Virus record (IMG/VR): IMGVR_UViG_2703718796_000007 | Source: a virus | Taxonomy: Duplodnaviria; Heunggongvirae; Uroviricota; Caudoviricetes | DNA length: 14,877 nt | Reading direction: 5' to 3' (one strand) | Made by a program: the position numbers and the translations under genes | Notes under the pieces: model-generated | What the model was told of the DNA's origin: nothing | What the model saw: only the letters and a program-made list of their open reading frames with translations | The model's database searches: none | Shown here: positions 1-14,877 of the stretch, piece after piece | Layout: each line of letters begins with the position of its first letter | Position numbering within the stretch: the stretch's first letter is position 1

Positions 1-1218
1 ATGAACAAACTGAGCGATACCTTGCTAAGGAAACTTCATGGTAAGCCAGCGGAGAAAAACACGTTTTATAGCGATGGCGGAAATCTGAGCGTGAAATATT
101 TAACATCAGGGAAATTAACCTGGTATTTCACTTACAGGGCAGGAACGGGAAGAGAGACACGACCGGAACGTATTAAGCTGGGAAATTATCCTGATCTGAG
201 CCTGAAAGCAGCCAGGGAAAAAGCCGCCCAGTGTCGCGCATGGCTGGCGGAGGGGAAAAATCCACGCCATGAGATGAATTACGCCGTACAGGAAGCGTTA
301 AAGCCGGTAACGGTTGGCGATGCGCTCACCTACTGGCTTGAGTCGTACGTAAAGGAAAACCGCGTGGATTATATCGCCCTGAAAAGGCGACTTAATAATC
401 ACGTAATACAGTACATTGGCGCTATGCCGCTGGATAAATGCGAGCTACGGCACTGGCTGGCCTGTTTTGACCAGGTGGCAAAGCGAACACCTGTTACTGC
501 CGGATTCGTGCTACAGACATGCAAGCAGGCGCTTAAGTTCTGCCGGAGGCGGCGCTTTGCAATCAGCAACGTTCTCGATGATCTGAACGTGGCGGACGTT
601 GGGAAAAAACCGGATATAAGCGAACGTGTCTTAAGCACCAAAGAACTGGGCGAGTTATTGCAGGCGCTGGATAAAAAAATATTTTCTCCTTACTACGTCG
701 CGTTAATCCGCCTCCTGATTGTCTTCGGAGCCAGGACGGTAGAACTGAGGTTATCGGAGATCAGCGAGTGGGATTTTACCGAAATGCTATGGACCGTTCC
801 GAAGGAGCACAGCAAAACAAAGGTTGCAATATTCCGGCCCATACCGGAAGCGATCCTGCCGTTCGTCACGCGGCTGGTGGACCAGAACAGGCACACGGGC
901 TTATTACTGGGGGAAGTGAAACAGGAGGCCAGCGTATCGCAGTACGGCAGATTAGCGCACAGGAGGCTAAAACACCCTCAATGGTCATTGCATGACATCC
1001 GGCGCACCTTTACAACCATGCTGAACGATTTAGGCGTTGATCCTCACGTCGTGGAGCAGCTTACAGGCCACCAGATGCCAGGAATGCAACGCGTGTACAA
1101 CCATTCCCGCTATATTGATGCGAAACGCAATGCGCTTGATATGTGGGTGGAGCGGTTGGAGATACTGGCGGGAACACATGAAAACGTAACCACGCTACCA
1201 GTAACCAGAATAAAATAA
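1..1218 (+). CDS. int: Tyrosine integrase, P4-like family with N-terminal arm-binding domain
   Basis: 405-aa ORF starting at window position 1. N-terminus LSDGGNLSVKY...YRAGTGRETRPERIKLGNYPDLSLKAAREKA fits the P4-family arm-binding domain pattern. C-terminal region has box I Arg (GARTVELRL), HDIRRTF (H-x-x-R) and a terminal Tyr context (VYNHSRY). Confidence 0.9.
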   Translation: MNKLSDTLLRKLHGKPAEKNTFYSDGGNLSVKYLTSGKLTWYFTYRAGTGRETRPERIKLGNYPDLSLKAAREKAAQCRAWLAEGKNPRHEMNYAVQEALKPVTVGDALTYWLESYVKENRVDYIALKRRLNNHVIQYIGAMPLDKCELRHWLACFDQVAKRTPVTAGFVLQTCKQALKFCRRRRFAISNVLDDLNVADVGKKPDISERVLSTKELGELLQALDKKIFSPYYVALIRLLIVFGARTVELRLSEISEWDFTEMLWTVPKEHSKTKVAIFRPIPEAILPFVTRLVDQNRHTGLLLGEVKQEASVSQYGRLAHRRLKHPQWSLHDIRRTFTTMLNDLGVDPHVVEQLTGHQMPGMQRVYNHSRYIDAKRNALDMWVERLEILAGTHENVTTLPVTRIK

Positions 1219-1582: not shown

Positions 1583-1771
1583 GTGTTAAGCACTGATCGG
1601 TTTATACGTGAAAAAGAATGCGAAAAGCTAACAGGCCTTAGCCGCTCATGCCGCTACCGCCTGGAAAAGGCCGGACAATTCCCATCACGTCGTAAACTTG
1701 GTGGGCGTTCTGTTGGCTGGTCTTTATCTGAGGTTTTGGCCTGGAAGGATAGCTGCAAGGCAGTTCACTAA
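1583..1771 (+). CDS. alpA: AlpA/Vis-family transcriptional regulator (winged-helix, excisionase-like)
   Basis: 62 codons; GTG start 5 nt after a GGGGG Shine-Dalgarno. LTGLSRSCRYRLEKAGQFPSRRKLGGRSVGWSLSEVLAW matches the AlpA family pattern. Confidence 0.85.
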   Translation: MLSTDRFIREKECEKLTGLSRSCRYRLEKAGQFPSRRKLGGRSVGWSLSEVLAWKDSCKAVH

Positions 1772-2275: not shown

Positions 2276-2470
2276 TTATTCTTTGGGTTCAATACCGCGT
2301 TGCTGTAATTCTTTTCGGATTATTCGTTTTATCCAAGCAGCTAAAGAGTCATCACCGTCTTGTTGTTGTGCTTTTTCCATCTTTTCCCGTAAGTCAGGAT
2401 CTAAACGGAACTGGAAAGGAGGATTACCACGCCTTTCATTTTTGTGTGTTGACACGTCAATTACACCCAT
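2276..2470 (-). CDS. Ribbon-helix-helix (Arc/MetJ-like) DNA-binding protein, cassette 1
   Basis: 64 aa; basic N-terminal tail then FQFRLDPDLREKMEKAQQ...SLAAWIKRIIRKEL, the beta-strand plus two-helix pattern typical of RHH repressors. Confidence 0.6.
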   Translation of the reverse strand: MGVIDVSTHKNERRGNPPFQFRLDPDLREKMEKAQQQDGDDSLAAWIKRIIRKELQQRGIEPKE

Positions 2471-2475
2471 ATAAT
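2449..2475 (+). promoter_or_regulatory. Candidate sigma70 promoter, rightward (copy 1 of a duplicated control region)
   Basis: TTGACA (2449-2454), 15-bp spacer, TATAAT (2470-2475). The spacer is shorter than optimal. Followed directly by a palindromic operator. Confidence 0.35.
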
Positions 2476-2481
2476 GTGTTT

Positions 2482-2497
2482 ATGTGTATATACACAT
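2482..2497. promoter_or_regulatory. 16-bp perfect palindrome operator ATGTGTATATACACAT
   Basis: Perfect dyad symmetry immediately downstream of the -10 hexamer; same TGTG...CACA half-sites as the TGTGCGCACA sites at 3184-3264. Confidence 0.5.
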
Positions 2498-2510
2498 TAC
2501 ACACAACTAG

Positions 2511-2555
2511 CACAAAAAACAACGCCCCGCAGTGATGGGAACACATACGGGGCGT
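2511..2555 (-). terminator. Rho-independent terminator on the minus strand (copy 1 of a conserved hairpin block)
   Basis: Stem ACGCCCCG / CGGGGCGT (8 bp, 18-nt loop); on the minus strand it is followed by TGTTTTTTG. Lies between the two minus-strand cassettes. Confidence 0.55.
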
Positions 2556-2674
2556 CTAACCAAACCATTAATTGAGGTAACGATTATGGCTATAAAAGAG
2601 CATAGCTTACTCTTTATACACACACAAACGCCCCGGAAACGGAATAATCCGTTTCATAGTTCGGTTTTGTGCAC

Positions 2675-2902
2675 TCATCCTGGCGGTCGGTTTTTGCCGG
2701 ATTTAAGCCGCCGTGGGTATTTATCGACAAAATCTTCAAGGGCAAATTTTTCTGGTGGCACTAAGCGCGGCGCTGGTGGTGGTATTTTTGTTCTGGTTAG
2801 TTCTTCCTCAAGTCTGGCGCAGGCTTCTGACTGCCTTTGCCGAATGATTTCATCTTCTTGCGTCTGCGTGTCTTGTATTGGTGATAGTGTGTTGTTGGTC
2901 AT
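2675..2902 (-). CDS. Hypothetical 75-aa protein, cassette-2 partner (paralog of 2015..2218)
   Basis: Protein-like ORF; shared MTN start and F-x-L-E-D-F-x-x-K-Y motif with 2015..2218; Pro-rich central segment. Confidence 0.5.
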   Translation of the reverse strand: MTNNTLSPIQDTQTQEDEIIRQRQSEACARLEEELTRTKIPPPAPRLVPPEKFALEDFVDKYPRRLKSGKNRPPG

Positions 2903-2959
2903 GGTACTGCCCTGTAAAGCAATGCGCCGTAGTACCTCACGCCACGGCGCTGATGGTGG
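2903..2959. repeat. Conserved intergenic block, copy 2 (core 2911..2955)
   Basis: cctgtaaagcaatgcgccgTAGTAcctcacgccacggcgctgatg; see copy 1 at 2219..2275. Confidence 0.8.
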
Positions 2960-3157
2960 TTATTCCTGCTCTTTGGCCTTGCGGCGCTGTTCATATTTTA
3001 ATTTGCGTCCACAGGCATCTAAGACCCATGCGGAAAAATTAGCACTAGGATTAGTTAATTTTTCTTGTTCAACGCTGGCATCAATCCCATCTATAAGCTC
3101 ATGTGGGAATCGAATATTTTTCTTTGCTGATTTGTTGTTTGTGTTACCACTAGACAT
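2960..3157 (-). CDS. Ribbon-helix-helix DNA-binding protein, cassette 2
   Basis: 65 aa; IRFPHELIDGIDASVEQEK...NFSAWVLDACGRKL fits the RHH beta-strand plus helices pattern. GAGGTG Shine-Dalgarno 5 nt before the ATG on the minus strand. Confidence 0.55.
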   Translation of the reverse strand: MSSGNTNNKSAKKNIRFPHELIDGIDASVEQEKLTNPSANFSAWVLDACGRKLKYEQRRKAKEQE

Positions 3158-3183
3158 TGATGCACCTCACTTAAATGGACTTT

Positions 3184-3264
3184 ATGGGCGCACACAATAC
3201 AGCAAAAAAAATGAGATGTTAAGTATTGACATGTGCGCACACATGATTTTAATCTGTGCGCACA
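3184..3264. promoter_or_regulatory. Divergent control region with three TGTGCGCACA-type palindromic operators and a rightward sigma70-like promoter
   Basis: TGGGCGCACA (3184-3193), TGTGCGCACA (3232-3241) and TGTGCGCACA (3255-3264). The last two are 23 bp apart and bracket the promoter TTGACA (3226-3231), 16-bp spacer, TTTAAT (3248-3253). A possible leftward promoter TTGCTG...TAAAGT lies near 3175-3205 on the minus strand. Confidence 0.55.
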
Positions 3265-3292
3265 GTTTGAGTTTTGTCACTCAAATTAAGCA

Positions 3293-3326
3293 ACGCCCCG
3301 CAGTGCTCGCAACACATGCAGGGCGT
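3293..3326. other. Conserved hairpin block, copy 2, in the 5' leader of the rightward operon
   Basis: ACGCCCCG...CAGGGCGT (one mismatch in the stem), then CTAACCA and GAGGTA-N4-ATG; parallels 2520-2588, where the same block precedes an ATG at 2586. Confidence 0.5.
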
Positions 3327-3362
3327 CTAACCACCAACGATAGCGAAAGTATCGAGGTAGCT

Positions 3363-3563
3363 ATGAGAAATAATACCACACACCCGCAAGGGCGGGACTC
3401 GCACAACCTGAATAAATACATCTGGCGTTTTATCGCCCTGAGCACGGCACAACCGCGCGTGATTACCATTGAGGCCACCAGCGAACAGGAAGCACGCCAG
3501 CAATCCCCGGCTGGCTGCGTGATGGTATTCGCTGCCCGTATTCGCCAGGGGGTAGGCTTATGA
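3363..3563 (+). CDS. Hypothetical 66-aa protein, first gene of the rightward early operon
   Basis: ATG 4 nt after GAGGTA; shares its stop with the next gene's start (ATGA overlap at 3560). Family not recognised. Confidence 0.5.
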   Translation: MRNNTTHPQGRDSHNLNKYIWRFIALSTAQPRVITIEATSEQEARQQSPAGCVMVFAARIRQGVGL

Positions 3564-4042
3564 GCCAGGAAATCACACTACAACAGGCAGCAGAACGCGC
3601 CCACCAAATCGAAGTTATTTGCGCACTGGCAGAGGATTACCCTGGCATGATGACCGACAGCGAATCAGGGGCAATCATCGGCTTACTTAAACGCCTTAGC
3701 GGTGAGGTCTGCGTATTCCTGAGCGATGAACAGGAAAGAAGAACGCTTATTTCTAACGAAAAAAATGCGGAGGGGTACACCATGTGCAATAACATCCGTC
3801 CGGACGCAACCGCCGCCGCGCTCACTACGCTGATGCTCGCGCTTATTGATATTTCTGTTATTGCTGACAGGGCACATAAGCACGCCACCAGTGAAACAGA
3901 ATATGCCGGGGCTTTCGTTCCTCATTCGCTGGCGGTTATGCAACTTAGTGCTGATATGGCGCTGAATGAGGCCAAAGCTATCCTGATTGCTGATTGTGAA
4001 AATGGGGGGGGGTTATGCGTGATGATCGTTTTAATTCCCTGA
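3560..4042 (+). CDS. Hypothetical 160-aa protein
   Basis: ORF translationally coupled to its neighbours. The 3' end runs through a G9 tract (4004-4012), so the C-terminus is uncertain. Confidence 0.5.
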   Translation: MSQEITLQQAAERAHQIEVICALAEDYPGMMTDSESGAIIGLLKRLSGEVCVFLSDEQERRTLISNEKNAEGYTMCNNIRPDATAAALTTLMLALIDISVIADRAHKHATSETEYAGAFVPHSLAVMQLSADMALNEAKAILIADCENGGGLCVMIVLIP

Positions 4043-4479: not shown

Positions 4480-4779
4480 ATGAAACTTAAATATTCTGGC
4501 TTAACTGCCAGTGGCAACACTCACCCTAAATTTACGCGCGGTGATATTTACCGCGACCAGTACGGCGGCACGGTAATGATTAAGGGCGTGGCGGGACGGT
4601 GCGTAACTTACCGCCGTGAAGGTTACGAATATGATTGCGTGATGCCTGTTTATCAGTTCCGGCGTGATTTTTCTCTGGTACAGGCCGTACCGCGTAACGT
4701 GCCCACCAGCAGGGAGAAAGCACGCGCCAATATTCAGAAGATGAAAAACATGATTAACGGATTCAGGGGCAAGAAATGA
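4480..4779 (+). CDS. Small conserved prophage protein (possibly DUF4222-like)
   Basis: GGAG Shine-Dalgarno 8 nt upstream. RGDIYRDQYGGTVMIKGV...VTYRREGYEYDCVMPVYQF resembles a small family common in enterobacterial prophages; the family name is from memory and tentative. Confidence 0.55.
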   Translation: MKLKYSGLTASGNTHPKFTRGDIYRDQYGGTVMIKGVAGRCVTYRREGYEYDCVMPVYQFRRDFSLVQAVPRNVPTSREKARANIQKMKNMINGFRGKK

Positions 4780-6173
4780 AAAGCGCACCGAACTTAAAAA
4801 AACAGCCTTACGACAAGATGACCGAAGTCATCATTTTTGCGGGTAGTGATGCGTGGGCACATGCGAAACAGTGGCAGGAACAGGACGGGCGACTGGCTGG
4901 CGATAATTTGCCTCCCATTGTGCTGGCTGATGATCAACTGGATGAACTGGCAGACCTGAGAATCATCGACGAGGGGCGCTATTGTGTCCGGCTGTACAAG
5001 GCAGGCCACATCAGGCCATCAAATATTAATGCCATTGCGCACAAGCTGGCGGCGGCGGGCGTAACTGATGCGAATTATTACCCCGAAGGGATACACAGCC
5101 AGAAGCGGGAGAACTGGCGCGAATATCTGGAACGGGAGCGGGGGAAAAAGCCAGGGGAAGAACACCACCAGCGAAAAACCACGCTACCGATGAGCGTTGG
5201 ATCTGCCGGATACGACACGCAATTAGATTACGTGGTAAAGGGGATTATTCCGGCATCGTCGCTATGCAGCATATACGGGGCAAGCGGTTCCTATAAATCA
5301 TTCCTTGCTGGTTCGTGGGCGTGTCACGTTTCCACGGGCCGCCAGTGGGGAGGCCGCAGGGTGGCGCATGGCGCTGTTCTCTATGTGGTTGGTGAAGGCG
5401 GTATCGGCGTTCCGCGTCGTGTAAAAGCCTGGGAGGTTGTGCACGGTGAGCAGGTGAAAAATCTGTATCTGGTAAACCGTCCCATCTTTCCGGCTGTCCC
5501 GCTTGATGTTGATGAACTGGTTATTGCTGCCAGTCAGGTGGAGAGGGAAACGGGTAAACCTGTTCGCATGATTATTCTGGACACGCTGGCGCGCTGCTTT
5601 GGCGGCAATGATGAAAATGACTCCCGCGACATGGGGGCGTTTATCCGTGGGTGTGACGAACTGAAACGACGCACAGGGGCCACGGTGCTGGTGGTTCACC
5701 ATTCCGGCAAGGATGAGACGAAAGGCGCGCGCGGTTCCAGTGCATTTCGTGCATCACTGGATGCTGAATACCGGATACGCAGGGAGGACGCAGGAAGCGA
5801 AGCGCTGGTTATCTCATGCACCAAAATGAAGGACGCGGAGGAACTCAAAGAGGCTGCCTATGATTTGCGGGTGGTGGAGCTTTTTACCGACGCTGACGGG
5901 GAGTTAATCACGTCGCTGGTGGTGGTGGATAAGCCGCGCCCTCCCGTTGAACTGGAGCGCATCGAGGAGGCAGGGAACAAGACGGAAAACCATACCGCGC
6001 TATGGGGGTGCATCCGTTCACGCACACAGAACGGCGACAAGTGCACGATCCCGCTGTTACGTGATGACATGAAAAAACTGGGGTATGAAATGAAAAACTT
6101 CCGGCGCTGGCTGTACAAGCTGGAAAAAGATGGGGTTATTCGTATCGATGGGGATGATGTAGCGCCGCTATAA
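4776..6173 (+). CDS. Replication initiator: RepA-like / AAA_25-type RecA-fold ATPase (helicase loader or helicase) with an N-terminal extension
   Basis: 465 aa. Walker A-like YGASGSYKSFLAG; Walker B MIILDTLARCFGG; the VLVVHHSGKD motif typical of RepA/AAA_25 proteins. Followed immediately by iterons. Confidence 0.85.
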   Translation: MKSAPNLKKQPYDKMTEVIIFAGSDAWAHAKQWQEQDGRLAGDNLPPIVLADDQLDELADLRIIDEGRYCVRLYKAGHIRPSNINAIAHKLAAAGVTDANYYPEGIHSQKRENWREYLERERGKKPGEEHHQRKTTLPMSVGSAGYDTQLDYVVKGIIPASSLCSIYGASGSYKSFLAGSWACHVSTGRQWGGRRVAHGAVLYVVGEGGIGVPRRVKAWEVVHGEQVKNLYLVNRPIFPAVPLDVDELVIAASQVERETGKPVRMIILDTLARCFGGNDENDSRDMGAFIRGCDELKRRTGATVLVVHHSGKDETKGARGSSAFRASLDAEYRIRREDAGSEALVISCTKMKDAEELKEAAYDLRVVELFTDADGELITSLVVVDKPRPPVELERIEEAGNKTENHTALWGCIRSRTQNGDKCTIPLLRDDMKKLGYEMKNFRRWLYKLEKDGVIRIDGDDVAPL

Positions 6174-7311: not shown

Positions 7312-7364
7312 ACGATCGGTGCGATTGCTGATTTCCTTATGAAAAACGGTTGAGTGTTTGCCGC

Positions 7365-7402
7365 GTCCTGGAGTTCCTTACTTAACCCCAGGACTTTTTT
7401 TT
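7365..7402 (+). terminator. Hairpin plus T8 tract abutting the capsid start codon; terminator- or attenuator-like, and sequesters the capsid Shine-Dalgarno
   Basis: GTCCTGG (7365-7371) pairs with CCAGGAC (7388-7394) across a 16-nt loop; T8 at 7395-7402; ATG at 7403. The AGGA at 7390-7393 lies in the 3' arm of the stem. Confidence 0.4.
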
Positions 7403-8560
7403 ATGCCGAGAATAATCGAATTACGCCAGCAGAAAACCGCCATTAAAAATCAGATGCGCGACATGCTGGAGAACGCTGAAAAAGAAAACCGCAGTCTTAA
7501 CGATGCTGAGGGCGCAAAATTTGACGAATTACGCGCTAAAGCTGAATCCCTCGATAAAGACATTTCCCGCCTTGAAGCCATTGCAGACGAAGAGCGCAGC
7601 AAGCCAGGTAAAAGCAGTCAGACCACTGACCCCGCAGAACTACGAAACTACATTCTGACGGGTGAAACCCGCGCATTAAGTACAGGCGTTCCCGCTGATG
7701 GTGGTTATACCGTTATCCCCGAACTGAACACCGAAATCATGCGAATGCTGGCGGATGAATCCACCATGCGCCGCATCTGTACCGTGAAGAAAATCAGCAG
7801 CAACGAGTTTAAGCAGCTTGTTTCCGCTGGCGGTGCGACCGTTAACCACGGTGAAGAGGGTAAGGCACGCGAACAGACCAGCACCCCGCAGATTAACGAG
7901 GTGAGCATTAAGCTGTATCCGGTCTATGCGTACCCGCGCACCACACAGGAAATCGTGGATTTTTCCGATGTGGACATCCTTTCATGGCTGACGGGCGAGA
8001 TTGGCGACACCTTCACGGAAACCGAAGAAAGCGATCTGGTTGTGGGCGACGGTGACAAAAAAGCAAAAGGCTTTTTATCCGTACCCCGTGCAGAGAAGAA
8101 CGACAAAGAGCGTGATTTTGGTACGTTGCAGGTAATTAAACCTTCCGAATCTCTGGCGTGGACATCTGCGGACCCGCTGATCGACCTGAAATTTGCATTA
8201 CGTAAAAAATACCGCAAGAACGCGGTATGGGTGGTTAACTCCACGACGGCGGCAAAACTCCAGAAGGTGAAGAATGCGAACGGGGATTATATATGGCGTG
8301 ACCGTTTACAGGCGGGTGATCCTGATACGTTGCTGGGCCTTCCGGTCGAATATCTGGAGTTTATGCCGGATAACGTTATTGCCCTGGGCGACTTTAAACG
8401 CGGTTACTACATCGTTGATCACGAAACAGGTGTTCGCACCAGACCGGACAACCTGACAGAACCAGGATTCATCAAAATTTTCACGCAAAAATATTTAGGC
8501 GGTGGCGTGGTGGATTCGAACGCGATCAAGATTCTGGAACTGCCACAGGACGACGATTAA
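7403..8560 (+). CDS. Major capsid protein, HK97 fold, with an N-terminal coiled-coil (scaffold-like delta) region
   Basis: 385 aa. N-terminal about 100 residues are charged and coiled-coil-like (ELRQQKTAIKNQMRDMLENAEKE...); the body contains VVGDGDKKAKGFL, matching the HK97 MCP family motif NGDGTG..L.GL. ATG at 7403 preferred over the TTG at 7358. Confidence 0.85.
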   Translation: MPRIIELRQQKTAIKNQMRDMLENAEKENRSLNDAEGAKFDELRAKAESLDKDISRLEAIADEERSKPGKSSQTTDPAELRNYILTGETRALSTGVPADGGYTVIPELNTEIMRMLADESTMRRICTVKKISSNEFKQLVSAGGATVNHGEEGKAREQTSTPQINEVSIKLYPVYAYPRTTQEIVDFSDVDILSWLTGEIGDTFTETEESDLVVGDGDKKAKGFLSVPRAEKNDKERDFGTLQVIKPSESLAWTSADPLIDLKFALRKKYRKNAVWVVNSTTAAKLQKVKNANGDYIWRDRLQAGDPDTLLGLPVEYLEFMPDNVIALGDFKRGYYIVDHETGVRTRPDNLTEPGFIKIFTQKYLGGGVVDSNAIKILELPQDDD

Positions 8561-8570
8561 CAGCATACAG

Positions 8571-8600
8571 AAGGGGCTAAAAAGCCCCTTTAGTGTTTTA
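8571..8600 (+). terminator. Hairpin with weak T-tract between the capsid and protease genes (possible partial terminator)
   Basis: AAGGGGCT-aaaa-AGCCCCTT followed by tagtgtttta. Confidence 0.45.
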
Positions 8601-8615
8601 TGGGTGAAAAAAATT

Positions 8616-9173
8616 ATGAAGAGTATGGAAATCCGGTCATCGGAAATCACCACCAGCGCCAGCAACACGCTTACAGGCTACGTTGTTCGCTGGGATAACC
8701 TTTCGGAACTGTTATGGGGGGAGTTTTACGAAAAATTCCAGCGGGGGGCGTTTACTGAGTGGCTTGCGGCGGGTAATGACGTTCGCGGCCTGTATGAGCA
8801 TGACCACAGCATGTTACTGGGGCGTACCCGTTCCGGCACGCTGAAACTGGAAGAGGACGAAACAGGGTTACGCTTTGAACTGACCCCACCGGATACCAGC
8901 ACAGGGCGGGACGTTATCGAACTGGTTAAACGTGGTGATATATCCGGCATGAGCTTTGGCTTTCGTTCCCGTAAGGATGTATGGGATACCACAACAGAAC
9001 CATGCGTGCGCACCGTGCTGGTGGCGGAACTGTACGAAATTACCGTTACATCCGTTCCGGCTTACCCTGATTCCGGCGTGGAGCTGGCCCGCCGTTCCCT
9101 GTATGAGCAGCACCCCGAAAAAATGCCGCGTGCGGATAATCGCCGCTGGTGGGTGGATTTAGCGGGGGTGTGA
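8616..9173 (+). CDS. Prohead maturation protease, HK97 family (S78-like)
   Basis: 185 aa. GLYEHDHSMLLGRT...LEEDETGL...GDISGMSFGF fits the HK97 prohead protease His and Ser motif context. In-frame ATG at 8616 (alternative 8625) chosen over the longer ORF from 8502. Confidence 0.8.
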   Translation: MKSMEIRSSEITTSASNTLTGYVVRWDNLSELLWGEFYEKFQRGAFTEWLAAGNDVRGLYEHDHSMLLGRTRSGTLKLEEDETGLRFELTPPDTSTGRDVIELVKRGDISGMSFGFRSRKDVWDTTTEPCVRTVLVAELYEITVTSVPAYPDSGVELARRSLYEQHPEKMPRADNRRWWVDLAGV

Positions 9174-9174
9174 T

Positions 9175-10386
9175 ATGTGGCCTTTCAGAAGAAAAAAAGA
9201 GCAGCGCAGCATGACGCTTGATGAATTTATGGCGCTGGCTGGCACATCGAACACGGGGGCGGGTGAGTACGTATCATCGGGGACAGCGGAATCACTGCCC
9301 GCCGTCATGAACGCCGTCACGGTCATCTCTGAGGCGGTGGCTACCATGCCGTGTTACCTGTACCTGGTACGCAATGAGAAGGGGAAGGAGGCCCGCGAGT
9401 GGCTTGATTCTCATCCGGTCGATCACATCCTCAACGAGCGCCCGAACGCATGGCAAACCCCCTACCAGTTTAAGCGAATGATGATCCGCCACTGCCTGTT
9501 AAACGGTAATGCTTATGCGGTGATTCAGTGGGGGCGTGATGGTTTTCCGGCGGCTTTACATCCTTACCCGCCGCAGTCGGTGAACGTGGAGCAGACAGGA
9601 GAACACAACTGGCGCTATTGCATCACTGACGCCTACACCGGAAACACCCGCAACTATTTACCGTGGGAAGTACTTCACCTTCGTTACTCCACGGATGACG
9701 GCTTTATGGGGCGCTCACCTGTAACCATCTGCCGCGAATCGCTGGGGCTTGGGCTGGCCCAACAACGCCACGGCGCGAGCGTGATGCGTGATGGCATGAT
9801 GGCGGCAGGGGTTATCACGTCAGGCGAATGGCTGGACGGCGTGAAAGGCAAACAGGCATTAGCCGCACTGGAACGCTACAAAGGGGCCAGAAACGCCGGA
9901 AAAACGCCCATCCTTGAAGGGGGCATGAGTTACCAGCAGCTGGGCATGAGTAACCAGGACGCCGAATGGCTGGCCTCCCGTCGCTTCACCATTGAAGACA
10001 TCGCCCGAATGTTCAACGTCTCGCCGATTTTTCTGCAGGAATACAGCAACAGCACCTACAGCAATTTCAGCGAGGCAAGCCGCGCATTTCTCACCATGAC
10101 GATGCGCCCGTGGCTGGCGAACTTTGAGCAGCAGATAAAAAACGCCTTGCTGGTGGTCTCGCCTGTACCTGGTATCCGGTATCAGGTGGAGTTTGACAGC
10201 GCGGACCTGTTACGGGCCACACCTGGCGAACGCTTTGCCACCTATGAGCGAGGCATCAAATCCGGTGTTATGTGCCCGAACGAAGCCCGCGAACGAGAAG
10301 GGTTGTCTCCGCGTGATGGTGGTGATGAGTTCAGCCAGGCATGGAAACAGGAAGTAAAAATCAGCGAGGGAGAAAAACCGGAATGA
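9175..10386 (+). CDS. Portal protein, HK97 family
   Basis: 403 aa; size, position and composition fit phage portal proteins. GGGGG Shine-Dalgarno 6 nt upstream; 2-nt gap after the protease stop. Confidence 0.8.
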   Translation: MWPFRRKKEQRSMTLDEFMALAGTSNTGAGEYVSSGTAESLPAVMNAVTVISEAVATMPCYLYLVRNEKGKEAREWLDSHPVDHILNERPNAWQTPYQFKRMMIRHCLLNGNAYAVIQWGRDGFPAALHPYPPQSVNVEQTGEHNWRYCITDAYTGNTRNYLPWEVLHLRYSTDDGFMGRSPVTICRESLGLGLAQQRHGASVMRDGMMAAGVITSGEWLDGVKGKQALAALERYKGARNAGKTPILEGGMSYQQLGMSNQDAEWLASRRFTIEDIARMFNVSPIFLQEYSNSTYSNFSEASRAFLTMTMRPWLANFEQQIKNALLVVSPVPGIRYQVEFDSADLLRATPGERFATYERGIKSGVMCPNEAREREGLSPRDGGDEFSQAWKQEVKISEGEKPE

Positions 10387-10721
10387 ACATAGGGCGACTG
10401 CGTGACAGGGTAACGATTCAGACCCTGAAACAGACCAGAGCCATGACGGGCGAAATACTCGAAACGTGGGAGGACGGTCACACACTCTGGGCAAGCGTGA
10501 ACATGGTCAGCAGCAAGGAGGCCATTTCATCGGGTGCAGAGCTGGCGATTGGTACCGTAAGGATCTGGATACGGTACCGGAAGGACATCAACGCCACCAG
10601 CCGGATAAAGGTCAATACGGGGCCGCTGGCGGGGCGTGTACTGAATATCATCGGGCAGCCGCTGCCGGATGCCGCCAGGACACGCCTTGAAATTCTTTGT
10701 CGTGAGGGCGCGGAAAAATGA
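10383..10721 (+). CDS. Head closure / head-tail joining protein
   Basis: 112 aa from the ATGA overlap with the portal stop. GRLRDRVTIQ...LWASVNMVSSKEAISSGAELAIGTVRIWIRYRKDI...RVLNIIG matches the head-tail joining family pattern. Confidence 0.75.
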   Translation: MNIGRLRDRVTIQTLKQTRAMTGEILETWEDGHTLWASVNMVSSKEAISSGAELAIGTVRIWIRYRKDINATSRIKVNTGPLAGRVLNIIGQPLPDAARTRLEILCREGAEK

Positions 10722-11014
10722 CAGAAGAACTTATCACCCTGGAAGAAGTGAAACTCCATTGCCGCATCGATGGCGACGAGGAAGACCAGTTAATCAGCGG
10801 ATACATTGCCGCATCGCTTGAGGCGTGCCAGATACACATAGGCAGGCGCTTTGATGACGGGCTGGAGTTCACGCCAGCCATAAAGATTGGCTGCATGATG
10901 TTTATCGCTCACCTGTATGAGAATCGCCAGATTGTCGCGGATAACGCAAAAACACACGTACCCATGACGATTGGCGCACTCTGGACGGCTTACCGTGATG
11001 TGGGGGTGTACTGA
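10718..11014 (+). CDS. gp6-like head-tail connector (adaptor) protein
   Basis: 98 aa; LITLEEVKLHCRIDGDEEDQLISGYIAAS...FIAHLYENRQ matches the gp6-like connector pattern. Confidence 0.75.
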   Translation: MTEELITLEEVKLHCRIDGDEEDQLISGYIAASLEACQIHIGRRFDDGLEFTPAIKIGCMMFIAHLYENRQIVADNAKTHVPMTIGALWTAYRDVGVY

Positions 11015-11454
11015 TGCCGTGGCAACCATTAAGACGATGTACAGAACCAGGCTGCAACAGGCGCGTGAAGTCCGGCAAGTGTGAGGAGCACAGACGCAGC
11101 GCACGCCAGCAGCAGGACAGCCGGAGAGGCAGCAGCAGGGAGCGAGGGTATACGAGGCAGTGGGAGAAATACCGCGCCATGTATCTGAGTAAAAACCCGT
11201 TATGTGCGCATTGCCTGGAAAAAGGAATATACACGCCCGCCGTGGTGGTGGATCACATTATCCCAATCGATGGCGGTAATGATGTTCTCTTCTGGCCTGA
11301 GTGGAATCATCAGCCATTGTGCCAGGCGTGTCATAACCAGAAAACGAAATGGCTTGATCCGTCCACAAAAAACAAGCGTGCTGCGGGTGGATTCCGTGAG
11401 GAGGAAGAACGGGCCGCTAACCGCAATAACTGGATGTATGGCGCTGATGAATGA
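11014..11454 (+). CDS. HNH endonuclease (packaging-associated)
   Basis: 146 aa. CAHCLEKGIYTPAVVVDHIIPIDGGNDVLFWPEWNHQPLCQACHNQK is an HNH motif with Cys pairs; it sits immediately upstream of terS/terL, as in cos-type HK97-like packaging modules. Confidence 0.85.
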   Translation: MPWQPLRRCTEPGCNRRVKSGKCEEHRRSARQQQDSRRGSSRERGYTRQWEKYRAMYLSKNPLCAHCLEKGIYTPAVVVDHIIPIDGGNDVLFWPEWNHQPLCQACHNQKTKWLDPSTKNKRAAGGFREEEERAANRNNWMYGADE

Positions 11455-11742: not shown

Positions 11743-12099
11743 ATGTCAAGACCACCGAAAGCCCCCGCCTACCTGGATGATATCGCCGTGAAGCAGTGGC
11801 GGGAAAAATCTAGGCAGCTTGCGGAACGGGGAGACCTGACCCCCGCCGACTGGAGCAATCTGGAACTGTATTGTGTCAACTACTCCATTTACCGGAAAGC
11901 CGTTGCAGACCTTGCGGCGCGCGGGTTCAGCATTGTTAACAGTCAGGGCGGCGAGAGCAGAAACCCCGCATTAAGCGCAAAATCCGACGCTGAAAGAGTG
12001 ATGATAAAAATGGCCTCCTTGCTCGGTTTTGACCCGATAAGCCGCCGTAAAAATCCACCGGAAACAGAAGAAGAGGACGAGCTTGACCGCCTGGAATAA
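11743..12099 (+). CDS. terS: Terminase small subunit, P27 family
   Basis: 118 aa; LTPADWSNLELYCVNYSIYRKA...NPALSAKSDAERVMIKMASLLGFDPISRRK matches the P27-type TerS pattern; acidic C-terminus. Confidence 0.8.
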   Translation: MSRPPKAPAYLDDIAVKQWREKSRQLAERGDLTPADWSNLELYCVNYSIYRKAVADLAARGFSIVNSQGGESRNPALSAKSDAERVMIKMASLLGFDPISRRKNPPETEEEDELDRLE

Positions 12100-13744
12100 G
12101 TACGCAGAAGACGTAAAAACGGGCAAAATTCCGGCCTGTAAACGGCTGAAACAGGCCGTTAAACGGTACTTTTCGGACCTTGAAAGCCCCCTTTACACGT
12201 TCGATCGTGAGGTTGTGGAGCGGTTTATTGCCTTTTCCAGGGTGTGCCCGCACGTAAAAGGGCCGATGCGTGGCAGACCCATTGAGCTGGAGCCGTGGCA
12301 GCAGTTCGCCTTTGCGTGCATCCTCGGCTTTAAGGTTAAGGCCACCGGACGGCGCAAATACACGAGCGCCTTTATCGAAGTGCCGCGCAAAAATGCGAAA
12401 TCCACGACCGCCGCGATTCTGGCTAACTGGTTTCTGATTATGGAGAACGGGCAGCAGGATATTTACACCGCAGCGGTGAGCCGTGACCAGGCGCGGATCG
12501 TTTTTGATGATGCGCGTCAGATGTGCCTTTTATCCCGACCGTTACGCAGGCGGGTGAATATTCAGGCCCACAAGGTGATGCACCCGAAAAGCAACAGCCT
12601 GTTAAAGCCGCTGGCAGCAAAAGCGGCAACCATCGAGGGCACAAACCCCAGCCTTTCCATCGTGGACGAATACCACCTACACCCCGATAACGGCGTTTAT
12701 TCCGCGCTTGAGCTGGGGATGGGCGCACGTCCCGAAGGGCTGTTATTTGCCATTACCACATCGGGCAGTAACGTCGTTTCAGCCTGTAAGCAGCACTATG
12801 ATTATTGCTGCCAGATCCTGGACGGCGAAGAGGTCAACGATTCAATTTTTGTACTGATTTACGAGCTGGACGACGAAAACGAGGTTGATGATCCGGCGAT
12901 GTGGATAAAGGCTAACCCTAACATCGATGTTTCCGTGGATCGTGAAAAACTGGCCTCAACCATCCAGAAAGCGCGGGGTATTCCGTCGCAATGGGTGGAG
13001 ATGATGACAAAGCGATTTAATATCTGGTGCCAGGGGGCTACCCCGTGGATGGGTAACGGCGCATGGGCTGAGTGTGCCGGAACGTTCACGGAGGAAGATT
13101 TACACGGGCAGGAGTGTTACGCGGGGCTGGACTTATCATCAACCAGCGATATTTCCAGCGTGTGCTATGCCTTTCCGGTCGGTAAAAATATCATGCTGGT
13201 TTCCCGTCATTATCTGCCGGAGTTCCAGCTACAGAACCCCGCCAATAAAAACCGCGCTGTCTATCGCCAGTGGGCTAAAGCGGGCTGGATACGCACAACG
13301 CCAGGTGACTGCATTGATTACGACCGGATCAGAGATGACATCATGCAGGATGCGGAGAAATTTAATATCAGGCTGGTGGGCTTTGATACGTGGAACGCCA
13401 CGCATCTCAGGACGCAATTACAGGGGGCAGGCTTTGAGGTGGAGCCGTTCCCGCAAACCTACCTCAGATTCAGTCCGGCGGCGAAATCGTTCGAAGTTTT
13501 TGTTAACCGCAGGGTGATTGTGCATCGTGGCGATCCGGTGTTGTCCTGGTCGATGAGTAACGTCGTGATGCAGAGTGACGCGAACGCCAATATCAAGCCG
13601 AACAAGAAAAAATCACCGAACAAGATAGACCCGAGCGTAGCTGCGCTGATGGCGTTTGGTACATTCCAGGCAGAGCATGAGGATTTTGCTTTTGATATAA
13701 GCGACAGCCACCGCCAGAAACTGGAAGAATTTAGCGGGGTGTAA
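12083..13744 (+). CDS. terL: Terminase large subunit
   Basis: 553 aa; Walker A-like VPRKNAKST in the N-terminal ATPase domain and a C-terminal nuclease-domain-sized region; overlaps the terS end by 17 nt. Confidence 0.9.
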   Translation: MTAWNKYAEDVKTGKIPACKRLKQAVKRYFSDLESPLYTFDREVVERFIAFSRVCPHVKGPMRGRPIELEPWQQFAFACILGFKVKATGRRKYTSAFIEVPRKNAKSTTAAILANWFLIMENGQQDIYTAAVSRDQARIVFDDARQMCLLSRPLRRRVNIQAHKVMHPKSNSLLKPLAAKAATIEGTNPSLSIVDEYHLHPDNGVYSALELGMGARPEGLLFAITTSGSNVVSACKQHYDYCCQILDGEEVNDSIFVLIYELDDENEVDDPAMWIKANPNIDVSVDREKLASTIQKARGIPSQWVEMMTKRFNIWCQGATPWMGNGAWAECAGTFTEEDLHGQECYAGLDLSSTSDISSVCYAFPVGKNIMLVSRHYLPEFQLQNPANKNRAVYRQWAKAGWIRTTPGDCIDYDRIRDDIMQDAEKFNIRLVGFDTWNATHLRTQLQGAGFEVEPFPQTYLRFSPAAKSFEVFVNRRVIVHRGDPVLSWSMSNVVMQSDANANIKPNKKKSPNKIDPSVAALMAFGTFQAEHEDFAFDISDSHRQKLEEFSGV

Positions 13745-14039: not shown

Positions 14040-14121
14040 CTCACTGAGATTAAAGCAAAGCGCGAAATTGCGCTGGCTGAATGATCATTATGATTACTTA
14101 TGTTTACGCAGATGATTAAGG
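14032..14121. repeat. Long direct repeat, copy 1, containing the stem-loop AGCGC-GAAATT-GCGCT and the palindrome AATGATCATT
   Basis: ggcggtaact...ttaaagcaaagcgcgaaattgcgctggctgaatgatcattatgattac[ttatgtttac]gcagatgattaagg; near-identical to 14164..14243 apart from a 10-bp insertion. Confidence 0.8.
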
Positions 14122-14163: not shown

Positions 14164-14243
14164 GGCGGTAACTGGTTGAACTTAAAGCAAAGCGCAAAAT
14201 TGCGCTGGCTGAATAATCATTATGATTACGCAGATGATTAAGG
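14164..14243. repeat. Long direct repeat, copy 2
   Basis: ggcggtaact...ttaaagcaaagcgcaaaattgcgctggctgaataatcattatgattacgcagatgattaagg. Confidence 0.8.
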
Positions 14244-14302: not shown

Positions 14303-14608
14303 GACCATGAAATTACGGAAACTACCCGTAGTTTGGGTAGTAAGAGCAACACCCAGATTTTGGGGCTTACTCGTGATACCCAAATTTGGGGTATCGGCGG
14401 CAACCATAACGACTTTCGTTACGGTTGATGCTTTTACCCCATTGAGGGAAAGGTATTACGATAATCATAACACCTACCGAACAGGTAAAGCCCACCAGCC
14501 TGATTAACTGTTAACCGGAAAAAAATTCCGGTAGGGTTCCCGATATGGGAATCCCCATATCGACAGCAACGCCCCCTTAAAATTACCCGCCTTTATATTT
14601 CTTGTGCC

Positions 14609-14626: not shown

Positions 14627-14724
14627 TCATACAGTGCGCCGAACGGTGTAGTCACTGGTGTAGTTATTTTGAGTTTTTTTGCACTTCGGGCTTAATTGAA
14701 AATATAATTAAATCAATATGTTAT

Positions 14725-14877
14725 TCAAAATAAGTTATATATAACAGCAATAAATAATGCGAGAATAAACGGCACGATGATCTCGGCGGCAAAACGGATA
14801 CCGCAGAGAATAATGACCAGCATTCCCAACATAATGACGATTTTTAGGCCATTGAGCGTGATGATCGGCTTTGCCAT
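14725..14877 (-). CDS. tqsA: Truncated inner-membrane protein ORF (50 aa) at the element's right junction; first 45 residues match the N-terminus of TqsA/YdgG as I recall it
   Basis: Minus-strand ORF starting at the window edge: [45 protein letters not shown] followed by IYNLF and a stop. The identification is from memory and unverified. Confidence 0.45.

Follow-up and report, generated by a model that had tools for sequence, protein, structure and literature searches.

Dedicated site-specific integration at a 9-bp core, ATAACAGCA, splits the E. coli gene tqsA at the right end of the window, by which we mean the whole 14,877-nucleotide stretch of DNA that was analysed; we put the probability of this reading at about 0.93. 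Judged by its genes, the ~15-kb window is a capsid-forming phage-inducible chromosomal island (PICI; capsid-forming type, cf-PICI), and a functional loss of TqsA, which we hold with less confidence than the split itself, is predicted from what remains of the reading frame. As the preliminary description of this DNA had proposed, the right junction falls inside tqsA, the integration truncates the host gene, and the target is a protein-coding gene and not a tRNA gene. The split parts codons 1-46 from the remaining ~300, and the window contains no tRNA gene. Earlier publications already describe the junction with its core, the disruption of the gene and this class of element.

Megablast against 5,426 complete E. 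coli genomes identified window positions 14741-14877, read on the minus strand, as the first 137 nt of tqsA at 100% identity, and the last base of the window is the first of the tqsA start codon. Across thousands of complete E. coli genomes, the alignment of intact tqsA to the window starts at 14741 and includes nothing further left. BLASTP of the 50-codon minus-strand ORF at this edge against K-12-type full-length TqsA (344 aa, locus L002) returned 47/48 identities with an E value of 1e-27, in agreement with the earlier identification of this ORF as the TqsA/YdgG N-terminus. Residues 1-46 are native and residue 47 is Y where TqsA has L; N48 matches TqsA again because the element sequence resembles the target there. 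The preliminary description had read 45 native residues followed by IYNLF and a stop; the match to TqsA stands, and the count is corrected to 46 native residues and four element-encoded ones (YNLF). It had also placed the divergence at about 14740-14742, which is the right place for the break (14740/14741), with the stop codon itself, a TGA, lying at 14727-14725. The exact 50-aa chimeric product is recorded in 1,832 blocks of public assemblies.

The attachment sites were compared three ways, using an empty site for attB (L002), a related occupied genome for attL (L003) and the window, together with L003, for attR. ATAACAGCA is the only stretch shared by all three, and strand exchange must therefore fall within it. 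In the plus orientation of the window, attB reads CACCAGCGGGTTAAGA-ATAACAGCA-ATAAATAATGCGAG, attL reads ...GGGTTAAGA-ATAACAGCA-TTTTATCAATTAGTG and attR, in the window and in L003, reads ...AAAATAAGTTATAT-ATAACAGCA-ATAAATAATGCGAG. This direct repeat common to both junctions corresponds to tqsA codons 44-46, and its attR copy lies within the range of 14735-14750 that had been predicted for the core (Table 1). Around the core, the reconstructed attP GTTAtatATAACAGCAtTttATcA matches attB GTTAagaATAACAGCAaTaaATaA at 18/25 positions. The palindrome that overlaps the core is a putative core-type integrase site; its element-side GTTA mimics attB GTTAAGAATAAC, and the extended homology is imperfect. 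Relatives at the tqsA site align to the window through 14877, whereas those at roxA(ycfD)-phoQ lose similarity after 14686. The exact 23-mer spanning attR had no match in species-representative genomes.

Table 1. Coordinates of features in the window, with the evidence for each
Feature	Window position	Strand	Evidence
Tyrosine integrase, P4-type arm-binding domain	1..1218	+	Pfam Arm-DNA-bind_3 9e-19, Phage_integrase 2e-16
AlpA-family regulator/excisionase	1583..1771	+	Pfam Phage_AlpA 5e-18; PHROG excisionase and transcriptional regulator 1.7e-17
RepA-like replicative helicase, satellite replication module	4776..6173	+	Pfam AAA_25 2.8e-43; 'helicase RepA family protein' in relatives
Head module: HK97-type major capsid, prohead protease, portal, head closure, head-tail connector, HNH	7358..11454	+	
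TerS (P27 family) and TerL	11743..13744	+	NCBIfam sm_term_P27 1.9e-16; Pfam TerL_ATPase, TerL_nuclease
Tandem 12-bp repeats GGTGTAGTCACT / GGTGTAGTTATT, putative arm-type integrase sites	14645..14668	+	Only two matches in window
Core-proximal right arm, specific to tqsA-targeting elements	14687..14740	.	roxA(ycfD)-phoQ relatives diverge after 14686
Chimeric 50-codon ORF: TqsA residues 1-46 and element-encoded YNLF	14725..14877	-	Translation, BLASTP
12-bp perfect palindrome GTTATATATAAC, overlapping the core, left part of attP	14734..14745	.	Read from sequence
attR copy of 9-bp core ATAACAGCA	14741..14749	.	attB/attL/attR comparison; single occurrence in window
tqsA native 5' end: start codon (14877-14875) to second base of codon 46	14741..14877	-	Megablast and BLASTP

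The window begins inside int and attL lies outside it; the left junction was deduced from relatives whose integrase and right end are identical to those of the window. These are NZ_AP027256 (L003), whose element is of the same kind (96% identity), and NZ_CP061914 (L001), with an 11.6-kb satellite; in both, the integrase is identical at 405/405 residues and the right end is 98-100% identical to that of the window. Among the 5,426 complete E. coli genomes, the best match to the whole window reached 96.4% identity over 90% coverage. The occupied locus in L001 and L003 runs pntB / tqsA remnant / int ... / tqsA 5' end / ydgV-mdtJI, with terL before the tqsA 5' end in related genomes, and the empty site runs pntB / tqsA / mdtJI. 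The 3' remainder of tqsA, which the preliminary description had expected beyond the left edge of the element, was located in these related genomes to the left of the integrase. It is a remnant of 906 nt annotated without an N-terminus, and the 5' piece on the other side is a 144-nt fragment annotated without a C-terminus; PGAP labels both halves pseudogene fragments. A second copy of the core sits beside the remnant in L003 (3805-3813) and also in L001.

The remaining 301 tqsA codons stand behind two in-frame stops (TGA, TAA), the attL side reading ...KNTN-stop-stop-N-AVILNPLVQHMVR in the tqsA frame. No replacement start is present, and the remnant has no in-frame Met before M54; an ATG formed at the attL junction (AAAATGCTG) was considered as a new start and ruled out because its frame differs from that of the remnant. 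In intact TqsA, a protein of solved structure (7NB6), the Pfam domain PF01594 (AI-2E_transport) extends over residues 14-328, and the split falls inside it. The remnant lacks PF01594 profile positions 1-31, and in L003 its reading frame is otherwise intact, with full Pfam coverage of its part. Outside the window, L003 also contains a 60-codon hypothetical ORF (3819-4001, minus strand) that covers the left arm and arm repeats and points toward the remnant. This ORF shares the frame of the remnant but is cut off from it by the TGA and TAA, and a new, element-supplied N-terminus that restores tqsA was ruled out by these two stops.

Occupancy of the site was surveyed with a 201-bp probe centred on attB in 5,423 complete E. 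coli genomes. The probe matches in one piece in 5,170 of these and not in one piece in 253, while the attL junction is found in 247 complete genomes and the right (attR) end of the window in 241. Overall, tqsA is split in about 250 of the 5,423 genomes (~4.7%), and the site is empty in ~95%. No genome among the 5,423 has more than two places that match the probe; therefore, none combines a split with an intact tqsA. All of the occupied junctions read at base level (L001, L003 and L007-L016) break at the same position, and the junctions of the ~250 occupied genomes align to the same ends.

One and the same attR junction, with its 50-aa ORF, adjoins at least three types of cargo (L007-L016, downstream of 10153 in each locus). 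These comprise HK97-type cf-PICIs, elements with a lambda-E-type capsid and an HDPD decoration protein, usually accompanied by a Nu1-type TerS, and a third type that encodes a 629-aa ClpP-protease/capsid fusion. Replication genes vary as well, with either a RepA-like helicase or a D5_N primase. The integrase of the window is identical (405/405) to those of other tqsA-site elements with differing cargo, and the int-att module is common to several satellite types.

The integrase has the composition of a P4-type enzyme, with an N-terminal Arm-DNA-bind_3 (DUF4102) domain and a C-terminal tyrosine recombinase domain in which the R-HxxR-H-Y catalytic residues are visible as ARTVELR, HDIRR, GH and VY motifs. 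Position 1 of the window is an internal ATG of this gene; identical genes in RefSeq start at a GTG 12 nt upstream, outside the window, and encode 409 aa versus 405 aa. Its integration module resembles that of P4 in pairing an Arm-DNA-bind_3 domain with a catalytic domain, in the position of int beside attP and in the tandem 12-bp arm repeats on both sides. In contrast, the two integrases share 23% identity over 303 aa (E 6e-14), the arm repeats differ in sequence and the cargo is unrelated. A tRNA 3'-end target is typical of P4-type integrases without defining them: P4 targets a tRNA-Leu gene, whereas the element of the window targets the interior of a protein-coding gene, tqsA.

The tandem pair of 12-bp repeats lies ~75-95 bp inside the element from its right end, and relatives have an identical pair at their left end, directly upstream of int (L003 3942-3965). 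Taken alone, the count of two is weak, with 20 of 200 shuffled sequences reaching it. Because the repeats are paired at both ends and the annotated layout of P4 is alike, with tandem 12-bp arm repeats by int, then the core, then tandem repeats on the far arm, we read GGTGTAGTCACT/GGTGTAGTTATT as putative arm-type integrase binding sites. Other short features were observed in the same region. Two near-identical terminator-like hairpins, AGCGCAATTTCGCGCT (14059-14074) and AGCGCAATTTTGCGCT (14191-14206), each followed by TTGCTTTAA, lie on the minus strand between terL and the right arm, opposite the satellite genes. Such hairpins might block transcription coming in from the tqsA promoter; terminator-like hairpins are no more numerous here than in shuffled sequence. 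Upstream of the arm repeats, at 14515-14562, the non-coding right arm has two more hairpins, both short and perfect: CCGGAAAAAAATTCCGG, and CGATATGGG/CCCATATCG with a loop of 4 nt.

The attP junction predicted for the circular form, GTTATATATAACAGCATTTTATC, has an exact match in one metagenome contig, CYGL01000683.1 (L006, 11,271 bp), at 8757-8779 on the minus strand; the exact 31-mer of the predicted attP had no match in IMG/VR. Alignment identifies this contig as a circular permutation of a related 11-kb satellite without tqsA flanks. In it, the right end and right arm lead through ATAACAGCA into the left arm, int and primase, and the sequence then returns toward the capsid gene; the two contig ends map ~140 bp apart on the integrated relative. 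This arrangement suggests an excised circle or concatemer, or a packaged form, and a tandem integrated array could be an alternative source of the junction. The contig, which represents the related 11-kb satellite and not this cf-PICI, suggests that elements with this int-att module circularise at ATAACAGCA.

Near-identical cf-PICI cargo is also found at a sister site, roxA(ycfD)-phoQ. In one such locus (L004; 3805-3814, 3986-5215 and 20026-20035), the integrase is 90% identical (364/405) to that of the window. The 41 substitutions that distinguish the phoQ type from the tqsA type are concentrated in the domains that bind the arm and core sites and are sparse in the catalytic domain. Both versions of attP have the int-proximal arm from TTTTATCAATTAG onward in common. 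They differ in the core (GGACATATTT versus ATAACAGCA), over ~55 bp of the arm next to it and in the arm repeats, GGTGTAGTTAAT in the phoQ type versus GGTGTAGTCACT in the tqsA type. In elements of the EcCICFT073 type, the core adjoins the 3' end of phoQ, sharing two bases with its stop codon, and the coding sequence is not evidently disrupted. Bands of nucleotide identity fail to separate tqsA-type from phoQ-type integrases, the two overlapping at 90-95%. Species-representative genomes contained only one relative of the integrase, a Shigella flexneri locus at 90% identity, which may be of the ycfD-phoQ type. As far as the aligned proteins and sites can tell, the tqsA/phoQ integrase pair is a natural specificity swap, and 90%-identical integrases with different targets could make it easy to map, in a natural system, what determines site specificity.

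Assignment of the window to the cf-PICIs follows from its gene content and order, which fit the description of proteobacterial cf-PICIs. The left end encodes an integrase, AlpA and a RepA-like helicase, all on the plus strand, with small ORFs, including a DUF4222 protein, between AlpA and the helicase. To their right, the element possesses its own capsid, protease, portal, connectors, HNH protein, TerS and TerL. The head proteins match Pfam Phage_capsid (1.8e-61), Peptidase_S78 (7e-48) and Phage_portal (2.5e-90), and the connectors and HNH protein match NCBIfam gp16_SPP1 and put_DNA_pack and Pfam HNH (9e-8). Among the ORFs scanned with Pfam, NCBIfam and PHROGs, of which a few short ones had no match, none matched a tail or lysis (holin) family. 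The same content and order recur in the cf-PICI family, whose prototype is EcCIEDL933 (Alqurainy et al. 2022 preprint, de Sousa et al. 2023): int, alpA, replication genes and capsid-protease-portal-connectors, followed by hnh-terS-terL, without tail or lysis genes. The likeness is one of gene content and order. According to the Alqurainy preprint, there are six attB sites for cf-PICIs, and four of these also serve classical PICIs.

L003, the closest relative at the tqsA site, lacks a variable accessory stretch that the window has at 2283-3799. Within this stretch, an open frame of 343 codons (2532-3563) is recognisable only at its C-terminus, as an Icd-like cell-division-inhibitor domain (residues 296-339). 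The Icd-like protein of relatives is encoded by a separate 65-aa gene with an 'ash family' pseudogene upstream, and the 343-codon frame may be a fusion or may have been called too long.

Both integration sites were known from classical E. coli PICIs: EcCI042 and EcCIK1516 have the core ATAACAGCA at tqsA, and EcCICFT073 has the core GGACATATTT at ycfD-phoQ, listed as a separate site (Fillol-Salom et al. 2018, ISME J, PMC6092414 Table S1). Derived independently here, both cores equal the published ones (PMC6092414). The preliminary description had considered a protein-gene target notable; the target is real, but with the site and core already published for E. coli PICIs its notability is weaker. 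EcCI042 and EcCIK1516 share with the window the tqsA site, the 9-bp core, an int-alpA left end and a rightward organisation, and the integrase of the 11-kb tqsA-site relative L001 is 100% identical to that of the window. In contrast, EcCI042 and EcCIK1516 are ~11-kb classical PICIs, whereas the window, at ~15 kb, encodes the full HK97-type head and terminase set. In the tqsA-site relatives of 11 kb found here, a lambda-E-type capsid gene occurs together with a head-decoration gene and, in most of them, a Nu1-type TerS.

Disruption of tqsA also has precedent. Bobay et al. 2013 (PMC3603311) name it among conserved genes disrupted by prophage integration, and Mageeney et al. 2020 (PMC7192596) present it as a 'regulated gene integrity' candidate with three E. 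coli elements of 11, 15 and 16 kb. Like the window, these TIGER elements (Eco282.16.tqsA, Eco33.11.tqsA and Eco557.15.tqsA) are 11-16 kb long, integrate in E. coli and interrupt the UPF0118/AI-2E domain of tqsA near its N-terminal end, a likeness drawn from names and domain coordinates. The same kind of domain disruption is found here, with PF01594 split at one position by at least three cargo types that carry identical integrases.

We propose that the element's own tyrosine integrase recombined attP with a dedicated attB inside tqsA, and that strand exchange within the 9-bp ATAACAGCA yielded attR at 14741-14749 and attL beyond the left edge of the window. The native promoter would then drive only the 50-residue fragment, approximately the first predicted membrane-spanning stretch. 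Because the remaining 301 codons would have neither promoter nor start codon, the AI-2 exporter TqsA is most likely inactive in carriers while the element is resident, and an N-terminally truncated TqsA starting at M54 may conceivably persist. Precise Int/AlpA-dependent excision would be expected to restore tqsA.

Several other readings were weighed against dedicated integration. A junction created by chimeric assembly, or a chance resemblance to tqsA, has in its favour only the coincidence of the window end with the tqsA start codon, and 137 nt at 100% identity, together with the same junction in 241 complete genomes and 1,832 assembly blocks, makes it negligible. We also regard as very improbable that tqsA is an accidental or secondary site, with the true target elsewhere, such as a tRNA gene or the ycfD-phoQ spacer. 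Bobay et al. 2013 (PMC3603311) suggested that sparsely populated disrupted-gene sites may be secondary, and a 90%-identical integrase does use ycfD-phoQ; however, every junction read at base level breaks identically, the alignments of the ~250 occupied genomes share their end points, and attP carries tqsA-like sequence around the core (18/25). Moreover, the ycfD-phoQ elements differ in core GGACATATTT, core-proximal arm and 41 integrase substitutions, and the two sites are listed separately (PMC6092414). Hardly more credible is an element that leaves tqsA active by supplying a replacement N-terminus or start. The 60-codon left-end ORF runs toward the remnant in the same frame, yet it stops (TGA, then TAA) before reaching it and has neither a Pfam match nor any resemblance to TqsA residues 1-46, while the PGAP pseudogene calls and the absence of profile positions 1-31 from the remnant also speak against rescue.

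A further possibility would add to dedicated site-specific integration, not replace it: the split could act as a regulatory switch ('regulated gene integrity') that turns AI-2 export off at integration and on at excision, to the benefit of host or element. tqsA is among the candidates of Mageeney et al. 2020 (PMC7192596), several independent cargo types use the site, and the L003 remnant retains an intact frame with full Pfam coverage. Against this, ~95% of genomes have an empty site, intact remnants are equally expected after recent insertion, and any site-specific element splitting a dispensable gene would look alike; we consider a switch of this kind unlikely. We place somewhat less belief in a fuller proposal, in which helper-phage or SOS excision restores the AI-2 exporter as a functional, reversible switch and, separately, the conserved TqsA(1-46)-YNLF fragment is possibly made as a small membrane protein. 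The idea of a tqsA switch was already put forward as a candidate by Mageeney et al. 2020 (PMC7192596). If true, it would couple quorum-signal export or biofilm behaviour to satellite induction, and the TqsA(1-46)-YNLF fragment, if made, might affect the TqsA pentamer or the cell.

Overall, dedicated integration into tqsA adds little beyond a correct annotation of the window as a cf-PICI in the published tqsA attachment site of PICIs. For the host, carriers are probably without the TqsA AI-2 exporter, which could skew comparisons of quorum sensing or biofilm formation between strains.
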